The notes: a model not told the origin generated them from the letters alone. 64,000 bases of DNA from Escherichia coli (GCF_050920415.1 NZ_CP169309.1); one strand, 5' to 3'; positions 3,070 to 53,890 are shown, counted from the first letter of the stretch. Made by a program: numbers and translations.

Positions 3070-6000
3070 ATGAGTCTCTCTTTCAGTGAAGCAAAATTAG
3101 AACAAGCGATCATTGAACTGTTACAGGATCAGGGATATCAACACCTGATCGGCGATAATGTCCCACGTTCAAGTCTCGATCAGGTCATTATCGAAGACGA
3201 TCTCCGTCATTATTTAGCGGCACGCTACCAGCCTGATGGCATTACTGAAGAAGAGATTCAGCGACTGATCAAACAGTTCACCACGCTCCCCGCTTCCGAT
3301 CTTTATGAAAGCAACAAAACATTTTGTCGCTGGCTGGCAAATGGTTTTCTGTTCAAACGCGACGATCGGCAACAAAAAGATCTCTATATTGAATTGCTCG
3401 ACACCCGGCATCTACCTGCCGCACTGCGCCAGATATTTGACGCCGAAGATGTCCCGTTGCAACAGGCGGCGGAACTCCCGCCCTCCTATATTAATCCGCC
3501 GCTTAACCGGATTAAGATTGTTAACCAGCTTAAAATCTCCGGTAAAGATAATCAGACTCGTATTCCTGACGGCATTCTCTATATCAACGGTCTGCCACTG
3601 GTCGTCTTTGAATTTAAAAGTGCGGTGCGCGAGCAGGATGCCAGTATTGGCGATGCCTGGAAGCAGCTCTGTAAACGCTATCGCCGGGATATTCCGCAAC
3701 TGTTTATCTACAACGCGCTCTGCATTATTAGCGATGGCGTAAATAACCGGATGGGCAACCTGTTTGCGCCCTATGAATACTTTTACTCATGGCGCAAAGT
3801 CACCGGTAATGAAAACCGTGAACAGGACGGAATTCCGTCATTGCACTCAATGATTCAGGGGCTGTTTCATCCGGTACGTCTGCTGGATGTGATTAAAAAC
3901 TTTATCTGCTTCCCGGATAAAGCCAGGCACGAAGTAAAAATTTGCTGCCGATATCCGCAGTACTATGCCGCCCGCAAACTCTATTACAGCATCAAGCAAG
4001 CGCGTAAACCTTTCGGTAGCGGTAAAGGCGGCACCTACTTTGGCGCAACGGGCTGTGGCAAAAGTTACACCATGCAATTTTTAACGCGTCTTTTGATGAA
4101 GAGCGTGGAGTTTGCCAGCCCGACCATTGTTTTGATCACCGACCGCACCGATCTGGACGATCAGCTTTCTGCGCAAATGTGCAATGCCAAAAATTACATT
4201 GGCGACGACACCATCGTTCCTGTTACCAGCCGTGAAGATTTGCGTAATCAACTGGCGGGACGCAATAGTGGCGGTGTATTCCTGACAACGATCCATAAAT
4301 TCACCGAAGACACCGAACTCCTTTCTGAACGCAGCAATATCATTTGCATCTCGGACGAAGCACATCGCAGCCAGGTTAACCTCGACCAGAAAGTCATCGT
4401 CGATAAAGAAAGCGGAAAAGTGCGCAAAACTTATGGCTTTGCGAAATACCTGCACGATTCACTGCCAAACGCCACCTATGTTGGCTTTACCGGCACACCG
4501 ATTGACGCGACGCTCGATGTCTTCGGTGAGGTGATCGACAGTTACACCATGACCGAATCCGTTCAGGATGAAATCACTGTACGCATCGTGTACGAAGGCC
4601 GTGCGGCTAAAGTGATCCTGGACTCCAGCAAACTGGAAGAAGTCGAAAAGTATTACGAAGAGTGCGCAAACGCAGGCACCAATGAGTGGCAAATCGACGA
4701 AAGCAAGAAAGCCACGGCTACCATGAATGCGGTTCTGGGTGATGAAGATCGGTTAAAAGCCCTCGCGGAAGATTTTGCTAAACATTATGAAAAACGCGTA
4801 GCCGAAGGTTCCACCGTAAAAGGCAAAGCCATGTTTGTTTGCACCAGCCGTGAAATTGCCTGGGATTTCTACCGCCAGCTTAAAGCTATTCGCCCTGCCT
4901 GGTTTGAAGTGAAGCAAGCCCCCGATGGCGTCGTCCTGACGGAACAGGAGCAGAAAGAGTTACCGCCTTCAGAAATGGTGAAGATGGTCATGACGCGCGG
5001 TAAAGATGACGACGAGGCGCTTTATGATTTACTGGGCACAAAAGAATATCGTAAAGAGCTGGATAAGCAGTTCAAAAACGCTAAATCGAATTTCAAAATT
5101 GCCATTGTCGTTGATATGTGGCTGACCGGTTTCGACGTTCCTGAACTGGATACTATCTATATTGATAAACCCTTACAAAAACATAACCTTATCCAGACCA
5201 TTTCTCGCGTTAACCGTAAACTGGAAGGCAAAAGTAAAGGGTTAGTGGTGGACTATATCGGCATTAAGAGTCAGATGAACCAGGCACTGGCAATGTATTC
5301 CCGCATTGATGCCACCAACTTTGAAGATATTCAGCAATCGGTAATAGAAGTTAAAAACCATCTCGATTTGTTGGGGCAAGTCTTTTACGAATTTGACAGT
5401 CGGGATTATTTTAGTGGTGAGCCGCAAGCGCAATTATCCTGCCTCAACCGCGCGGCGGAATTCGTTCTGAGTACCCAGAAAGTTGAACGTCGTTTTATGG
5501 GACTGGTTAAACGCATGAAAGCCGCCTACGACGTCTGCTGCGGCAGCGAAGCATTATCACAGACAGAACGTGACTATATTCACTATTATCTTGCTGTTCG
5601 TTCAATTGTTTTCAAACTGACGAAAGGTGACGCACCGGATGTTACCCAGATGAATGCACGCGTTCGCGAAATGATTGCAGAAGCGTTAAAAGCTGATGGC
5701 GTAGAAGAGATTTATTTTCTTGGCGATAAAAAAGCGGAATCCATCGATATTTTTGACGAAGATTATCTGGCGCGAATTAACAAGATCAAACTTCCGGCAA
5801 CGAAGATCCAGTTATTACAAAAATTACTGGAAAAAGCAATCAGCGACTTCAAGAAAGTGAACCAGTTGCAAGGGATTAACTTCACCCGCCGCTTCCAGGC
5901 GATTATAGATCGTTATAATGAGCGGCGAGAAGATGATGTACTCAACGGTGAAGAATTCGATACATTCAGTCAGGAAATGACCGATATTATCTATGATATT

Positions 6001-22131: not shown

Positions 22132-25100
22132 TTGATTTAATGAATTTAACTTTTCAGTACAGCACGTAAAATAACTAAAACACCCTTGTTCTTTGGCGGT
22201 GCTCAGCCACCGCCACTATTATTCATGGTTTAGCAAATTTACGGCTAATTCATTATTTCTGGTCATATTATAGTCAGGATCGTTTTATACCTCCGTGCTA
22301 GAAAAAACACGTTTAATTCTGTTTTTTCACGGAAGGTCACTATGGCTTCGACAAATGCGCAGCAAATAAAAAATAATGATCAAAACTCTTTATGCGGTCT
22401 GGGTGACAAAATACGCCGCCTGGCCGCCGGAGTTTGTTTATTCACACAAATTTTTTTCCCCGTCATCGCGACGGCACAAAATGTGGTACACGCTAAACCC
22501 CAGATGACAGTTTCATCTCCTCCCCCTCTTACAGAAAATAAAACCGTACCTTACACGCTTGGCGCGCTGGAATCAGCGCAAAGTGTTGCTGACCGGTTCG
22601 GTATTTCACTGGAAGAGCTTCGTCGTCTTAATCAGTTTCGTACTTTTGCTCGCGGCTTTGATAACGTGCGTCAGGGTGAAGAACTGGATGTTCCGGCAAC
22701 AACCTCGCAGAGAAGTCATGAGCTACAAAATGCCGTATCACCGGCGAATGCCGAAAACACACTGGAGAATCAAATAGCCAGTACTTCACAGCGAGTTGGC
22801 ACTCTGCTTTCACAAGGTATGAATAGTGAGCAGGCGAGCAGCATGGCGCGTGGTTGGGCGTCTTCAGAAGCCTCTGGCACGATGACTGATTGGTTAAATA
22901 ACTTTGGCACCGCGAAAATCTCTCTGGGCGTGGATGAAGATTTTAGCCTGAAAAATTCGGAATTCGACTTCCTGCATCCATGGTATGACACACCCGATTA
23001 TCTGCTCTTCAGCCAGCATACCCTTCATCGAACGGACGATCGCACCCAGATCAACACCGGTTTAGGCTGGCGTTACTTCACCCCCAGTTGGATGTCAGGC
23101 ATCAACCTGTTTTTTGATCACGACCTGAGCCGCTATCACTCCCGCGCGGGACTTGGCGCAGAATACTGGCGTGACTATCTGAAGTTGAGCAGCAATGCTT
23201 ATATCGGCCTGACCGGCTGGCGTAGCGCACCAGAATTGAATAATGACTACGAAGCCCGCCCGGCTAACGGCTGGGATTTACGCGCAGAAGGCTGGTTACC
23301 TGCCTGGCCGCATCTGGGTGGAAAACTGGTCTATGAACAATACTATGGCGATGAAGTGGCGCTGTTTGACAAGAATGATCGTCAAAGTAATCCCCATGCT
23401 ATTACCGCAGGCCTCAACTATACCCCCTTCCCGCTTCTGACTCTCAGTGCAGAGCAGCGTCAGGGGAAACAAGGTGAAAATGACTCACGGTTTGCCGTTG
23501 ATCTGACCTGGCAACCCAGCAGCTCAATGCAGAAACAGCTTAACCCGGACGAAGTGGCCGGACGGCGCAGTCTGGCCGGTAGTCGTTATGACCTGATTGA
23601 TCGCAACAACAACATCGTTCTGGAATACCGCAAGAAAGAGCTTATCCGCCTGAGTCTGCTGGACCCAGTGAAAGGGAAATCGGGAGAAATAAAATCGCTG
23701 GTTTCCTCGCTACAGACCAAATATGCCCTGAAAGGCTATAAAATCGACGCTGCTGCGCTGGAATCTGCTGGAGGAAAAGTCAGCACTTCCGGAAAAGATA
23801 TCACGGTCACGCTGCCTGGTTACCGCTTCACTAACACCCCGGAAACCGATAATACGTGGCCGATAGACGTTACCGCTGAGGATGTAAAAGGTAATCTGTC
23901 ACATCGTGAGCAAAGCATGGTCGTCATCCAGGCTCCGACATTAAGCCAGAAAGATTCTCTGTTATCCGTTAATCCGCTAACCCTGGCAGCAGATAAAAAA
24001 TCGACTACCACATTGACTGTGACTGCGCACGATTCCGACGGAACTCCGGTTCCGGGGCTGGCACTGCAAACCCGCAGTGAAGGTGTTCAGGATATCACGC
24101 TGTCTGACTGGACAGATAACGGGGATGGTAGCTACACACAGATGCTGACTGCAGGAACGACTTCAGGTTCAGTAACACTGACACCGCAACTTAACGGTGA
24201 GAGTGCGGTAAAAGAATCCATCGTCGTTAATATCGTCCCTGTTGTCTCATCCCGCGACCATTCTTCAATATCCATAGATAACATATTGTATTATGCCGGA
24301 GACGACATCAAAGTCAGGGTAGAACTGAAAGACGACAACAATAAACCGGTTGAATATCAAGAAGACGCGTTGGTAAAAGCCGTCACTGTCGAGAACAGCA
24401 AACCAGGCGCCACGGTTGTCTGGCACGAAGAGCATCCGGGCGTTTATGCAGCGAATTATCCGGCCCATAAGCAAGGAGCAGCCCTGAGGGCACAACTTAG
24501 CCTTCACAACTGGAATACTCCTCTGCAATCGCATATTTATAATATCGAAGCAAACCAGAATAAGGCTCACGTCGCTACATTATCCGCAACGAATAATGAC
24601 GTTTACGCCGATAAAAAGACGTTTAATACCATCACTATTAACGTCACTGATGAGAGTGATAATCCCCTGAGAAATCATCAGGTCACCTTTAAGAATGAGA
24701 AAGGAAGCGCGGAATTTGTAGAACCGACGCAACAAAATACTGATGCACATGGTGTTGCCACAATCAACATGATAAGTCAGGTTGCGGAAGAAAATACGAT
24801 TAGCGCTACGCTGCCAAATGGTTCTACTCAACGGGTAACTGCGAAATTTGTTAGCGATTCGAATACGCCAAAACTCAAACAACTGGTTGCCGCTCCAGAT
24901 ACCATTAGTGCTGGTAATAGCCAGGGTAGTACCCTGACCGCCACCGTCACAGACTTTCATAACAACCCGTTAAAAGATATGAAAGTGAATTTTGTGGCAC
25001 CAACTGACTCGCAACTGGACAACACGACCGCCACAACTGACCAGTCCGGGATTGCGCGGGTGCACCTGACCAGTTCAAAAGCAGGTAACTATACCGTCGA

Positions 25101-26047
25101 TGCCTCGCTTGAGGCGGATAAAAATATTCACCAGTCGGTTACGGTTACCGTGGTCCCAAACAGGGAACAATCGGTAATTATTTTGAATGCCGGATCGGGC
25201 AGTACGATTGCTAACAATACAGATACCGTTACCCTGACTGCCAGTGTGAAAGATGTTTATGGACACTCACTACCGGATGAGGATGTGAAATTTACCTTGC
25301 CAGCATCTATGACAGGGAACTTCACGCTAAGTAGTGACACCGCTCGCACCGATTCAAACGGCAATGCCGTGGTCACATTGCGAGGCACAAAAGCGGGTGA
25401 GTTTACAGTGACGGCGACACTGAGCAGAAATAATACCAGTGCTAATCAGCTAGTCTATTTTATTGGGGATACAAGCAGCGCGCAGCTCCAGCCGCTGACT
25501 GCCTCATTAAATACCATAGTTGCTGGCAACAGTACGGGGAGTACCCTGACAGCAACGATCCTGGACGCTTACCAAAATCCGCTTAAAGACCAACAGGTCA
25601 CTTTCCAGAGTAACGATGTCACACTAAGCGGAACAGAAGTCACCACCAATACGCAGGGTCAAGCGACGGTAATAATGACCAGCAATATTGCCGGACAACA
25701 TAACGTAGTGGTGAGCCGGAAAGCGCAATCATCCGATAATAAAACGTTTAGTTTATCAGTGCTCCCGGATGAAAGTTCGGCGAAGATAATAAGTATAACC
25801 GGAGCCGAAAAAACGATAATGGTTGGCGAAAACATCACGCTACGAATACACGTACAGGATGCGTTTAATAACGTCATAGCCGGTCAACGCGTCAGATTAA
25901 GTGCGCTGCCAACAGCTAACATTACGATAGACGATACGGCTTACACCGATAATAACTAGACTGGCCCCCTGAATCTCCAGACAACCAGTATCACTTAAAT
26001 AAGTGATAGTCTTAATACTAGTTTTTAGACTAGTCATTGGAGAACAG

Positions 26048-26413
26048 ATGATTGATGTCTTAGGGCCGGAGAAACGCAGACGGCGTACCACACAGGAAAA
26101 GATCGCAATTGTTCAGCAGAGCTTTGAACCGGGGATGACGGTCTCCCTCGTTGCCCGGCAACATGGTGTAGCAGCCAGCCAGTTATTTCTCTGGCGTAAG
26201 CAATACCAGGAAGGAAGTCTTACTGCTGTCGCCGCCGGAGAACAGGTTGTTCCTGCCTCTGAACTTGCTGCCGCCATGAAGCAGATTAAAGAACTCCAGC
26301 GCCTGCTCGGCAAGAAAACGATGGAAAATGAACTCCTCAAAGAAGCCGTTGAATATGGACGGGCAAAAAAGTGGATAGCGCACGCGCCCTTATTGCCCGG
26401 GGATGGGGAGTAA
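26048..26413 (+). CDS. insC: IS2 transposase OrfA (InsC)
   Basis: 121 aa from [24 protein letters not shown], with HTH region. Confidence 0.9.
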
Positions 26414-27276
26414 GCTTAGTCAGCCGTTGTCTCCGGGTGTCGCGTGCGCAGTTGCACGTCATTCTCAGACGAACCGATGACTGGATGGATGGCCGCCGCA
26501 GTCGTCACACTGATGATACGGATGTGCTTCTCCGTATACACCATGTTATCGGAGAGCTGCCCACGTATGGTTATCGTCGGGTATGGGCGCTGCTTCGCAG
26601 ACAGGCAGAACTTGATGGTATGCCTGCGATCAATGCCAAACGTGTTTACCGGATCATGCGCCAGAATGCGCTGTTGCTTGAGCGAAAACCTGCTGTACCG
26701 CCATCGAAACGGGCACATACAGGCAGAGTGGCCGTGAAAGAAAGCAATCAGCGATGGTGCTCTGACGGGTTCGAGTTCTGCTGTGATAACGGAGAGAGAC
26801 TGCGTGTCACGTTCGCGCTGGACTGCTGTGATCGTGAGGCACTGCACTGGGCGGTGACTACTGGCGGCTTCAACAGTGAAACAGTACAGGACGTCATGCT
26901 GGGAGCGGTGGAACGCCGCTTCGGCAACGATCTTCCGTCGTCTCCAGTGGAGTGGCTGACGGATAATGGTTCATGCTACCGGGCTAATGAAACACGCCAG
27001 TTCGCCCGGATGTTGGGACTTGAACCGAAGAACACGGCGGTGCGGAGTCCGGAGAGTAACGGAATAGCAGAGAGCTTCGTGAAAACGATAAAGCGTGACT
27101 ACATCAGTATCATGCCCAAACCAGACGGGTTAACGGCAGCAAAGAACCTTGCAGAGGCGTTCGAGCATTATAACGAATGGCATCCGCATAGTGCGCTGGG
27201 TTATCGCTCGCCACGGGAATATCTGCGGCAGCGGGCTTGTAATGGGTTAAGTGATAACAGATGTCTGGAAATATAG
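26371..27276 (+). CDS. insD: IS2 transposase OrfB (InsD), DDE integrase-like catalytic domain
   Basis: 301-aa ORF overlapping insC in the -1 frame, the IS3-family frameshift arrangement. Confidence 0.9.
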
Positions 27277-29098
27277 GGGCAAATCCACTAACGGCTATGC
27301 GTACGTTAACCTTATCAGCACCCAGCCTGGGGTCTATCAGGTGACAGCATCGCTGGACAATAACAGTAGTCGTAAAGTTGACGTGAGTGTGGCAAAGGGC
27401 AAACTCGAGTTAACATCATCGAAGCCAGAAACCACGGTCCATAACAGTGAAGGTATTACACTGACCGCAACGGCAAGAAATATTCAGGATGAATTGATGC
27501 CGGGGCAAATTATCACCTTTAGCGTAACACCTGATGGTGCAACGCTAAGCAATACAGGGGAAATCCTGACTGATCAGTCAGGTCAGGCCAAAGTGACGCT
27601 GACCAGTGACAAAGTCAATGTATATACCGTTACGGCCACAATGGGCAAAGACGTTCCCGTTCAGAGCCAGGTGACGGTTGCGGTTAAGGCTGATGCTACA
27701 ACGGCACATGTTGTGAGTGTAGTGGCTTCTCCTGACACCATAATCGCCGACGGGGTTGATAGCAGCACCATCACTTCACGAGTAGAAGATGATTATGGAT
27801 TCCCGGTTGAAGGTGTCGACGTTAGTTACAGCTTAGACACCAAAGGCAGCCCGGTGATTAATAATCCAACTACGCGTACCGATCAGTCCGGGCAAGTCAC
27901 GGCGACAATAACAGGTACATTGGCAGAAGCTCTAATTGTCAATGTTCAGGTCCCTGGCACAGTCCACAAATCCGCAGCCATTACATTGATTCCTGGTACG
28001 GCAGATGAAAGTAAATCAACATTGAAATCTAGCGTTAGCTCTTTTATGGCTGACTTCCAGGAGAGCGCGACACTTACGTTAATATTGCAAGACAAGTACG
28101 GTAACCCGATAGTGACGTCTGATCATCTGGAATTTGTCCAGTCAGGTGCCTACGTGAACCTCCTGAAGTTGAGCAATATTGATTACAGCCAAAGAAATTA
28201 CGGCGAGTACACCGTCACTGTCACTGGCGGCGTAGAGGGCAGAGCGACTCTCATTCCTATGCTGAACGGTGTTCATCAAGCAAACTTAAGCATATCACTG
28301 GATCTTGTCCGCTCAATAAAAGACATGCACGGTCATGTAACAGTCAACAACCATACCTTCACAACGGCTACATTCCCCAGTGAAGGTTTTATAGGGGCGT
28401 ACTACACACTTAATGATGACAACTTTGAAGCGGGTAAAACCGTTAGTGATTATATGTTCACAAGTTCACAGAGTTGGGTGTCTGTCGATGCTTCAGGTAA
28501 AGTTTCTTTCACAAATACCGGCGACCAAACTTCAGTCGTAATAAGCGCTGTTCCCAGACAAGGAGGTACAACCTACCAGACATTAATTAAGCTGAAAGGC
28601 TGGTGGGTGAATCATGGGAATCAAACCAATATCTGGCTAACTGCCAATGCGTTCTGCAACGCGAAAAGTGATGGATATAATCTTCCTGGCGTCGCACATT
28701 TAACGTCTGGCGAAAACAAACGCACGTTGGGATCGCTATATGGTGAGTGGGGGAACGTTGGGGAGTTTTCCAGTGATTCGCAATTTACCGCGGGTGCTTA
28801 CTGGACCAATCAACAGGATGATTACAATAGTCACGTCTATGTGCAGATGCTGACGGGCAGGATTGGAAGCGACGCAGATTCCAGCGCTCAACTAACTGCC
28901 TGCCGTAAATCACTTTAATTTCTGAAGTAGTTATTAAAGGATACCCTTTTGCGAGGGTATCCTTTCAGACTCATGACAAAAGCCAAATTGCCTGATGCGC
29001 TACGCTTATCAGGCTTACACTATCTCTCTAATATATTGAATTTTTATGCTTTTGTAGGGAGCACAAGGCGTTTATGCCGCATCTGGCACGAGCAAACA

Positions 29099-29671
29099 TT
29101 AATCAGCTCTTTTCTCCGGGCACTCAAGAAACTCAACAGCAACCGTTGATGTCAGCCAGACCCCGTTTTCCGCTTGCCAGAAAGGGATGCCTCGTTTCGC
29201 CATTTCCTGTGCTTTGACGGTTAAAATAACCGGCGATCCGTGTCTTGCTCCCACTTTGCGTGCCGTTGCTTCATCAGCAGAGAGATGCACGTAATGACGC
29301 TCTCCTGGAATCAGCCCTTGTTTTTTTATCTCGTCAAGAAAGCGGCTTGCTGTACCGTGGTAGAGAAATTGTGGCGGTGTTTTTTCGGCAAAGGCAATGG
29401 CGACCTGCGAAGTCGAATGCCCCTGAACCGCGCGAATGCACCTACTATCACTGGAATAACTAAAACGCTTTTTATCGCTGGTGGCGACAACGGTATCCAG
29501 TAATGCACGGGTTAACCGCTTACCTGCTTTTTGTGCACAAAGTATGAGCTTATCAATATCCGCCCATCCTTCACGGTCAAGTACGATACCAATCGCCTCC
29601 GGTTTATGTCGGAGAACAAAACTTAAAAACTTGCTCGTATCCGCCAGCTCTTTTTCGTTGTACTTTGCCAT
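29099..29671 (-). CDS. kptA: RNA 2'-phosphotransferase KptA (Tpt1 family)
   Basis: About 184-190 aa ORF recognised as KptA ([25 protein letters not shown]...). Confidence 0.85.
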
Positions 29672-52909: not shown

Positions 52910-53890
52910 ATGAACGCAATAATATCGCCCGATTATTACTATGTTCTTACCGTTGCTGGTCTGTCTAATGCCATGGCGTATGGCGAAGGACTGCCATTAC
53001 CGGACAGGGAAGATACGCCTCATCCCAGAATTAAACAATTAGCGAGATTTGCGCATACGCATCCCGGAGGCCCGTCATGTCACTTTAACGACATTATTCC
53101 ACTGACTCACTGCCCACACGATGTTCAGGATATGCAGGGTTATCACCATCCTCTGGCAACGAATCATCAAACACAGTACGGCACCGTTGGCCAGGCTCTG
53201 CATATTGCACGGAAATTACAGCCCTTTATTCCTGATAACGCGGGGGTTCTCATCGTTCCATGTTGCCGTGGCGGATCGGCTTTTACTGCGGGCAGCGAAG
53301 GGACATATTCAGAACGGCACGGAGCCAGCCATGATGCTTGTCGTTGGGGAACGGATACCCCTCTATACCAGGATTTAGTCAGCAGAACGCGAGCCGCACT
53401 GGCAAAAAATCCGCATAACAAATTCCTCGGCGTATGCTGGATGCAAGGCGAATTTGACTTAATGACAAGTGACTACGCGTCACACCCTCAACACTTTAAT
53501 CATATGGTTGAAGCCTTTCGTAGGGATCTAAAACAATACCATTCTCAGCTTAATAATATTACTGGCGCGCCGTGGTTTTGCGGCGATACCACCTGGTACT
53601 GGAAAGAAAGTTTCCCTCATGCGTATGAAGCTATTTATGGCAATTATCAAAATAATATTTTAGCCAATATTATTTTCATCGACTTCCAGCAACAAGGTGA
53701 AAGAGGGCTGACGAACGCGCCTGATGAAGATCCGGACGATTTAAGCACGGGATATTTCGGTTCAGCGTACCGGTCACCGGAGAACTGGACGACGGCACTG
53801 CGAAGCAGTCATTTCAGCGCGGCAGCCCGTCGGGGGATTATTTCTGACAGGTTTGTAGAAGCAATTTTGCAGTTTTGGAGCGAAAGGTGA
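52910..53890 (+). CDS. nanS: 9-O-acetyl-N-acetylneuraminate esterase NanS
   Basis: 326-aa ORF recognised as NanS/YjhS. Confidence 0.85.
   Translation: MNAIISPDYYYVLTVAGLSNAMAYGEGLPLPDREDTPHPRIKQLARFAHTHPGGPSCHFNDIIPLTHCPHDVQDMQGYHHPLATNHQTQYGTVGQALHIARKLQPFIPDNAGVLIVPCCRGGSAFTAGSEGTYSERHGASHDACRWGTDTPLYQDLVSRTRAALAKNPHNKFLGVCWMQGEFDLMTSDYASHPQHFNHMVEAFRRDLKQYHSQLNNITGAPWFCGDTTWYWKESFPHAYEAIYGNYQNNILANIIFIDFQQQGERGLTNAPDEDPDDLSTGYFGSAYRSPENWTTALRSSHFSAAARRGIISDRFVEAILQFWSER

Follow-up and report, generated by a model that had tools for sequence, protein, structure and literature searches.

iatD, an inverse autotransporter adhesin gene of Escherichia coli, split by an IS2 insertion

A 64,000-nucleotide stretch of Escherichia coli DNA (GCF_050920415.1, NZ_CP169309.1; hereafter the window) carries, between yjiJ and kptA, two plus-strand reading frames with Ig-like repeats on either side of an insertion sequence. 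Do they encode two proteins, or a single surface adhesin that the element has broken, and what has become of that adhesin? The analysis identifies positions 22342-28918 as iatD, the gene for an inverse autotransporter (type Ve) adhesin named and characterized by Goh et al. (2019, mSphere; PMC6714894), split by IS2. The best explanation is an iatD::IS2 insertion allele in which IS2 disrupts the 1746-residue IatD adhesin (probability about 0.93). Both components, iatD and IS2, are already known elements; the disruption is real but ordinary in kind.

Two reading frames of one adhesin gene

The gene and its neighbors are arranged as follows.

20953..22131, + strand: yjiJ (MFS transporter), the conserved upstream neighbor that defines the iatD locus; mapped from L008:15497-16675 of MFDS1022581
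22342..25956, + strand: 5' part of iatD, codons 1-1205; from the ORF listing, Pfam, PDB and identity to strain MFDS1022581
27293..28918, + strand: 3' part of iatD, codons 1206-1746 plus stop; from Pfam, invasin 1CWV and identity to MFDS1022581
29099..29671, - strand: kptA (RNA 2'-phosphotransferase), the convergent downstream neighbor; from its ORF and the annotation of an identical region

Genomic neighborhood analysis supports the assignment: in strains MB50, SMS-3-5 and MFDS1022581 the orthologue between yjiJ and kptA bears the annotation 'inverse autotransporter IatD', and the flanks in the window are 99-100% identical to those of the relatives' iatD locus. K-12 has no iatD, and its kptA and yjiJ lie 12 bp apart, in agreement with a preliminary description of this DNA, made from the sequence, in which the gene was said to be missing from K-12 at this position. 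Since kptA is convergent, a polar effect of IS2 on it is not expected. A promoter and terminator scan of 22000-29200 returned fewer sites than shuffled controls and was uninformative.

The 5' ORF runs from 22342 to 25959 on the + strand and encodes 1205 residues. As previously proposed, its stop, a TAG (25957-25959), is supplied by the opening three bases of IS2, so that no foreign tail is appended. The 3' ORF as listed (27251-28918, + strand) begins at a GTG within IS2, a product of mechanical ORF listing; genuine iatD sequence picks up again at 27288/27293. In silico removal of IS2 alone leaves 5246 bp that are out of frame and contain early stops, whereas removal of IS2 together with 5 bp (1336 bp in all) yields 5241 bp encoding 1746 residues with a single, terminal stop, matching the frame of roughly 1750 residues that had been calculated by hand. 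This places the insertion point at iatD nucleotide 3615, codon 1205/1206. In length the rebuilt gene equals the intact iatD of MB50, SMS-3-5 and MFDS1022581, and it aligns with each without gaps; it differs from the MB50 gene at 24 nucleotides and matches the MFDS1022581 gene (WP_000168888.1, NZ_CP169399.1) at 100% identity. The two halves match the same protein, which confirms that they belong to one gene, and both ORFs should be labeled as one IS2-interrupted iatD pseudogene, not as two Ig-like proteins. The name iatD is based on the locus, on full-length identity and on the RefSeq annotation of WP_000168888.1 as IatD; no NCBIfam model scored above its cut-off against the rebuilt protein, the best being the IatC N-terminal model (1141 bits vs 2400).

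The rebuilt IatD consists of a putative signal peptide, a periplasmic region, a 12-stranded barrel, approximately ten Ig-like domains and a lectin tip resembling invasin D4-D5. By inspection, the N-terminus is signal-peptide-like, with a basic KIRR stretch, a hydrophobic segment (LAAGVCLFTQIFFPVIATA) and ATA-Q / VHA-K motifs. The barrel is well defined: Pfam IAT_beta (PF11924) covers residues 149-423 (profile positions 3-279 of 279, E=6.2e-107), with matches in the PDB to invasin 4E1T (2e-80) and intimin 4E1S (1.6e-67). It lies N-terminal to the passenger, as membership of the inverse autotransporters (type Ve) requires, and the passenger is built, as in other members of that family, from tandem Ig-like (Big_1/Invasin_D3) domains. 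Big_1 is significant at residues 537-631, 745-837, 848-938, 952-1040, 1052-1135, 1164-1237, 1244-1333 and 1346-1437, while residues 1443-1534 are called mainly by Invasin_D3 (Big_1 E=0.009); in total Pfam recognizes nine Ig-like stretches, followed by Invasin_D4. The break falls after residue 1205, within the Ig-like domain at about 1147-1240, so that the 3' part opens with the remainder of that domain and goes on with another three to four Big_1/Invasin_D3 domains, followed by Invasin_D4 and the C-type-lectin-like tip.

The tip itself was recognized through a PDB match. The last 307 residues align with residues 204-462 (D4-D5) of invasin 1CWV (E=1.6e-14, with a second 1CWV match at 5.5e-24), and Pfam Intimin_C matches the C-terminus weakly (E=0.12). 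The earlier assignment of a lectin-like C-terminal domain thus holds, and the 1CWV match supplies the C-type-lectin-like capping domain found in intimin, invasin, YeeJ, IatC and IatD. The same preliminary description had placed a LysM region before the barrel and the Big_1-like run. Barrel and Ig domains are borne out by Pfam and PDB, but the LysM region is weakly backed: residues 1-1000 gave no Pfam LysM match even at E<=10, and residues 70-103 weakly match LysM-containing endopeptidases in the PDB (E=0.01 and 0.069), outlining a LysM-like stretch near residues 68-117. The two top-scoring PDB matches in that search are designed repeat proteins, not LysM domains. Goh et al. reported an InterPro LysM for IatD (PMC6714894).

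The IS2 copy and its target site

The insertion comprises the following features.

25952..25956, no strand: left target-site duplication, ATAAC, the same as the empty site; from the relatives' empty sites
25957..27287, + strand: complete IS2 (IS3 family), 1331 bp, oriented as iatD; from its ends and identity to the MFDS1022581 copies
25957..25998, + strand: left inverted repeat (IRL) of IS2, 42 bp, starting TAGACTGG; from sequence, length and termini as in PMC3299598
26048..26413, + strand: IS2 orfA (insC/TnpA, 121 residues); NCBIfam NF006928, positions 1-121 of 121
26371..27276, + strand: IS2 orfB (insD/TnpB, 301 residues), the catalytic part of the transposase; NCBIfam NF006918
27247..27287, + strand: right inverted repeat (IRR) of IS2, 41 bp, ending GGGGCAAATCCA; from sequence, length as in PMC3299598
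27288..27292, no strand: right target-site duplication, CTAAC; C27288 touches IRR, and the target base is A

The identification of the insert as IS2 is secure. TnpA and TnpB both match their NCBIfam models over the full length and above cut-off (for orfB, positions 1-301 of 301 at 727.6 bits vs a cut-off of 597), orfA and orfB overlap, and orfA contains the A6G -1 frameshift motif at 26365-26371. Over its 1331 bp the element is 100% identical to annotated IS2 copies of MFDS1022581. It opens with TAGACTGGCCCCC (IRL) and closes with the IRR terminus given above, each end occurring once in the window. Its terminal sequences, including AAATCCA at the IRR end, agree with those published (PMC3299598), apart from one base at which IRL departs from the published form (CAACCAGTATC vs CAACCAATATC).

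The empty site reads GATAATAAC directly followed by GGC in MB50, SMS-3-5 and MFDS1022581. Most plausibly, one IS2 copy took its normal copy-out-paste-in route, with a minicircle as intermediate, and landed at codon 1205/1206, partway through an Ig-like domain, nominally duplicating 5 bp of the target. The gene has grown by 1331+5 bp, as the preliminary description had it, but the duplication that it took for granted is imperfect, ATAAC and CTAAC agreeing at 4 of 5 bases. This departs from the textbook expectation for an IS2 insertion; in the 12 further IS2 copies looked at, the 5-bp duplication is perfect throughout. The mismatch does not go back to a target of another sequence, since the three relatives all have ATAAC at the empty site, and a later point mutation in the repeat was judged unlikely (at 2 SNPs in about 62.7 kb, the probability that one falls among the 10 bases of the two copies is approximately 3e-4).

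It is conceivable, with the odds clearly against it, that C27288 is a physical scar of the IS2 minicircle. The minicircle joins the two ends of IS2 through one spacer base copied from the host base beside the donor's left end, and this base remains on the 5' ends of the element once both 3' ends have been cut. Were repair to ligate it instead of trimming it, it would replace the first base of the target duplication. PMC3299598 contains no text on the retention of a spacer base. If the scar were genuine, C27288 would be a spacer base preserved by a transposition in nature and would offer a means to trace the donor IS2 copy.

The window sequence is an assembly, and an error of assembly or base calling would explain the same base differently: IS2 might have been misplaced into iatD, or C27288 alone might be wrong. 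IS2 is multi-copy in this lineage, consensus errors tend to occur beside repeats, and the sole anomaly, C27288, directly abuts the repeat. Nevertheless, the junctions are clean, the insert is exactly 1331 bp, and 4 of 5 bases duplicate the exact empty-site sequence, whereas a misplaced repeat would make no target duplication; a single-base error at C27288 may nonetheless have occurred. Overall, an artefact is very improbable.

Recency of the insertion and fate of the adhesin

A near-clonal relative, MFDS1022581, was aligned over window positions 1-63169. Positions 1-25956, including the DNA upstream of iatD, are 100% identical, and positions 27289-63169 differ by 2 SNPs. MFDS1022581 has the empty site within iatD where the window has IS2; conversely, an identical IS2 occupies its nan locus, which in the window is an empty site (52962-52966). 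Two IS2 presence/absence differences therefore stand against only two SNPs in about 63 kb. In MFDS1022581, IS2 matches 20 places on the chromosome and 11 on its plasmid, some of the latter being fragments; the first 50 kb of its 242-kb plasmid hold one complete IS2 and many fragments. A contig search with the IS2 right end returned 19 loci with few complete copies. Because the near-identical MFDS1022581 genome retains the empty site and is only 2 SNPs and one IS2 apart, the insertion into iatD is very recent, as had been suggested, and arose in a lineage in which IS2 is active and multiplying. A junction search (>=80% coverage) found the iatD/IS2 junction in 0 of 5,426 complete E. coli genomes, and an exact-product look-up found no 1205-residue product of this sequence on public record. 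The locus illustrates how quickly IS2 reshapes this lineage.

Could so recent an insertion be a reversible switch, with IS2 excising precisely often enough to give phase variation of the adhesin? IS-mediated phase variation is known in other bacteria, and deletion of IS2 plus one repeat copy gives an intact gene with no further defect. On paper, then, the earlier statement that precise excision restores the frame is correct, but E. coli seldom excises an IS: in about 2.2 million generations of mutation accumulation, 758 insertions and 1 excision (of an IS3) were recorded (PMC5009759). Copy-out transposition of IS2 moreover leaves the donor copy in place (PMC3299598), the repeats are just 5 bp long and mismatched, making a poor substrate for replication slippage, and the iatD lesions of other strains are unrelated and irreversible. 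The window itself shows one sequence state. A switch is accordingly extremely improbable, and precise excision should seldom restore the gene in nature.

Five such lesions were found in iatD of other strains.

N96: IS66, at iatD nucleotide about 5020
MB52: IS2-like element, at iatD nucleotide about 1510
E04: IS3-family element, at iatD nucleotide about 1716
WL297: deletion of iatD 167-1720
O157:H7 FRIK2069: frameshift (+1 G) near iatD nucleotide 178

The MB52 element is 95.6% identical to IS2 and is flanked by a perfect 5-bp duplication. Differing in position and mechanism, all five lesions are independent of the window insertion at nucleotide 3615, which joins at least five other cases in which iatD has been inactivated independently. 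This pattern is consistent with iatD being dispensable or disadvantageous in many settings, and the many independent breakages could reflect selection against making the adhesin.

Translation from the iatD start would end at the IS2-initial TAG, giving a product of at most 1205 residues. The truncated protein would keep the barrel and about 6.5 Ig domains and lose its final third, 541 residues among which is the presumed receptor-binding tip. The 3' piece lacks both signal peptide and barrel and is expected to be functionless. The earlier description of the gene as inactivated, and its term 'knockout', go further than the retained N-terminus and barrel allow: what the sequence shows is a truncation after residue 1205 with loss of the invasin-like tip. 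Indeed, the gene may have been shortened and not silenced, its 1205-residue product being secreted, displayed and partly active (for example in biofilm formation) without the lectin-like tip. Nothing is missing from the N-terminus or the IAT_beta barrel of the 5' ORF, and six of its Ig-like domains are whole; the DNA upstream of iatD is the same as in the intact relative, and the stop coincides with the start of IS2, adding no foreign residues. In inverse autotransporters the barrel-proximal end of the passenger is exported first, and display has been obtained with engineered, truncated passengers of intimin and invasin. Against this, the break inside an Ig domain (about 1147-1240) leaves a partial domain that is likely unfolded and protease-prone, and receptor binding by intimin and invasin depends on the C-terminal domains, the part missing from the truncated product (discussed in PMC6714894). 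A shortened, partly active adhesin is a possibility to be taken seriously, yet the less probable outcome; judged from the gene structure, adhesin function is probably lost. When overexpressed in K-12, IatD of SMS-3-5 appears on the cell surface and increases biofilm formation (PMC6714894). The present strain is probably without full IatD-mediated adhesion or biofilm activity.

IatD among known inverse autotransporters

The characterized IatD of SMS-3-5 (EcSMS35_4876) shares with the window gene the yjiJ-kptA locus, the length (5241 bp, 1746 residues), a gap-free alignment and the architecture of barrel, Big_1 repeats and lectin-like cap. The two are nonetheless divergent alleles, 91.3% identical in nucleotides and 90.4% in amino acids, falling to 78-86% amino acid identity over the last 350 residues; identity among the iatD copies examined by Goh et al. 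exceeds 98% (PMC6714894). The allele class of the window is the rarer one, present in 14 of 5,426 complete genomes vs 625 with the common class.

More distantly, Yersinia invasin and the intimin of EPEC/EHEC (4E1T, 4E1S, 1CWV) have a barrel homologous to that of IatD, and alignment with invasin extends over the C-terminal 460 residues of IatD, from D1 to the lectin-like D5. The Ig stalk of IatD is far longer than in either protein. Within E. coli, K-12 has a paralogue, YeeJ, with about 77% DNA identity over iatD nucleotides 199-1928 (from the LysM-like region through the barrel to the first Ig domain). YeeJ resembles IatD in architecture but occupies another locus and carries another passenger: K-12 possesses yeeJ and lacks iatD.

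An IS2 copy within the adhesin gene iatD

The interrupted gene is iatD, encoding an inverse autotransporter (type Ve) adhesin. A 500-bp probe directly left of the insertion finds matches, every one chromosomal, in 639 of 5,426 complete E. coli genomes, where the underlying features are named "inverse autotransporter IatD"; intact copies of 5241 bp lie between yjiJ and kptA in MB50, SMS-3-5 and MFDS1022581. Goh et al. 2019, who named the gene (EcSMS35_4876, 5,241 bp), reported cell-surface display and biofilm promotion upon overexpression in K-12; their account of the protein includes a LysM domain and Big_1 repeats with a C-type lectin cap (PMC6714894). Pfam places IAT_beta at residues 149-423 (E=6e-107), Big_1 and/or Invasin_D3 in nine stretches, and then Invasin_D4. 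The barrel matches the solved barrels of invasin (2e-80) and intimin (1.6e-67), and the C-terminus matches invasin D4-D5 (1CWV). The barrel, Ig repeats and lectin-like end of the preliminary description are thereby retained; its LysM region found no match in the Pfam search and weak ones in the PDB (E=0.01).

Features of the interrupted gene (ORFs from a mechanical ORF list)
22342-25959, + strand, 5' ORF, 1205 aa
25957-27287, IS2, 1331 bp, opening with TAGACTGGCCCCCTGAATCTCC at 25957 and closing with GGGGCAAATCCA at 27287
27251-28918, + strand, 3' ORF

By its sequence the insert is IS2, as first proposed. The element matches the NCBIfam IS2 TnpA and TnpB models over 121/121 and 301/301 profile positions, exceeding both curated cut-offs, carries the IS2 A6G frameshift motif at 26365 and is 100% identical along its entire length to annotated IS2 copies. 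Its terminal inverted repeats are imperfect, and neither end has a second occurrence in the 64 kb of the window. At window 25987 (position 31 of the left inverted repeat, IRL) this copy has CAACCAGTATC, unlike the IS2 of the biochemistry papers, which has CAACCAATATC; the CAACCAGTATC variant is common to the IS2 copies in MFDS1022581.

The insertion lies at codon 1205/1206, within an Ig-like domain (~1147-1240). The TAG ending the 5' ORF is formed by the element's first three bases, while the 3' ORF starts at a GTG within IS2 (27251) that is without biological meaning. In silico, the downstream part stays out of frame when just the 1331 bp are removed; taking out 1331 + 5 bp yields one 5241-bp ORF, free of internal stops and encoding 1746 aa, confirming the arithmetic by which removal of IS2 and 5 bp was said to restore the frame.

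Age of the insertion and its imperfect target duplication

That the insertion is recent, as originally suggested, is well supported by the near-clonal relative MFDS1022581 (South Korea, animal-source food), whose iatD is 100% identical to the gene rebuilt by removing IS2 and one repeat copy.

Window positions compared with MFDS1022581 (comparison covering 1-63169; the last ~830 bases, 63170-64000, lie outside it)
1-25956, identical
25957-27287, IS2 in the window only; MFDS1022581 has the empty site
27289-63169, differing by 2 SNPs (39117 and 52472)
52962-52966, the window has the empty site; MFDS1022581 carries an identical IS2 at this nan locus, flanked by perfect AGACA repeats

The pair is thus separated by two reciprocal IS2 events and 2 SNPs in ~63 kb. 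The iatD/IS2 junction is absent from all 5,426 complete E. coli genomes searched, and an exact-product look-up found no public gene call yielding the 1205-aa product. MFDS1022581 has 20 chromosomal and 11 plasmid places matching IS2, some of the plasmid ones being fragments; its IS2 at the nan locus (L038:5675-7005) has nanM on one side and a truncated sialate O-acetylesterase gene on the other.

The 5-bp duplication is present, though not perfect as described. The left repeat (25952-25956) is ATAAC, the sequence that MB50, SMS-3-5 and MFDS1022581 have at the empty site, whereas the right repeat (27288-27292) is CTAAC, its odd C (27288) touching the IS2 right end where the target base is A. 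All 12 further full-length IS2 copies whose flanks could be interpreted have perfect 5-bp repeats. From 2 SNPs in ~62.7 kb, the prior for an unrelated mutation in the repeats is ~3e-4, and this reading was judged unlikely. The odd C could be a consensus error at the repeat boundary, or it could be a carried-over minicircle spacer base. IS2 transposes by a copy-out-paste-in route through a figure-of-eight and then a minicircle, in which the ends are joined with a 1-bp spacer; finally both 3' ends are cleaved and attack the target (PMC3299598). The spacer base would stay on the 5' ends once the 3' cuts are made, and its ligation could then substitute it for the last filled-in base; a spacer C would not show on the left side, where the target has a C anyway. 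An identical IS2 on plasmid pMFDS1022581_1 has a C beside its left end, which is weak evidence for carry-over since one copy in four fits by chance, and no statement of such carry-over was found in the IS2 paper (PMC3299598).

Predicted truncated product and possible reversion

In iatD the insertion creates a premature stop and adds no foreign tail. The predicted 1205-aa product retains a signal-peptide-like N-terminus, the barrel and ~6.5 Ig domains, and lacks 541 residues, among them the invasin-like D4-D5 tip; by analogy with intimin and invasin, receptor binding would be lost. "Truncation" is a safer term than the claimed knockout, because the predicted stump may be either displayed or degraded. 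As kptA is convergent with iatD, a polar effect on it is not expected. In formal terms, precise excision could revert the allele, leaving Asn or Thr at residue 1204 (in silico). Such reversion should be rare, since E. coli mutation-accumulation lines gave 1 IS excision against 758 insertions (PMC5009759), and it is further disfavoured because the flanking repeats are short and mismatched. The observation is real and its first interpretation essentially right.

Distribution, other disrupted alleles and relation to characterised IatD

K-12 lacks the gene at this position, as stated at the outset: in MG1655 the kptA end (4561484) and yjiJ start (4561497) nearly adjoin, and the sole iatD match in K-12 strains is the paralogue yeeJ (~77%). 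Also missing from the corresponding K-12 position is a gene for a ~685-aa pentapeptide-repeat protein, at ~17727-19784 of the window (mapped from L008:12271-14328, the MFDS1022581 iatD region) between yjiL/DUF3343 and an SdiA-regulated yjiK homologue. Positions 1 to ~9000 (mapped from L037 and L008:1-3572), corresponding to the E. coli 'immigration control' region, which is variable, hold a restriction and defence cluster with type I R-M subunits M, S and R, symE, a GmrSD-type endonuclease gene and a truncated DUF262 pseudogene.

Both IS2 and iatD are already known, as are disrupted iatD alleles in public genomes.

Other disrupted iatD alleles
N96, IS66 near nt 5020
MB52, insertion of an IS2-like element near nt 1510, flanked by perfect CCGAT repeats
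E04, insertion of an IS3-family element at about nt 1716
WL297, nt 167-1720 deleted (1.5 kb)
O157:H7 FRIK2069, a single additional G near nt 178, with a stop at codon 67

Several further O157:H7 genomes have an iatD match of 5242 bp, as would be expected if they carry that extra base too; in FRIK2069, kptA is likewise annotated as frameshifted. The window insertion is an additional independent hit on an often-lost gene.

At a coverage of at least 80%, iatD occurs in 638/5,426 genomes, as two allele classes ~9% apart in DNA. The window allele belongs to the rarer class (14 of 5,426 genomes, sharing 99% or more identity with the MB50 allele), differing from MB50 by 24 nt; the commoner class comprises 625 genomes at ~91% identity, O157:H7 included. 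Goh et al. gave >98% identity among the iatD copies they examined (PMC6714894). Measured directly, SMS-3-5 iatD (L007:31675-36915) is 91.3% identical to the window allele. At the protein level, the window IatD differs from the characterised SMS-3-5 protein (90.4% identity, no gaps) most strongly in the lectin-like tip, where the last 350 residues fall to 78-86% amino acid identity.
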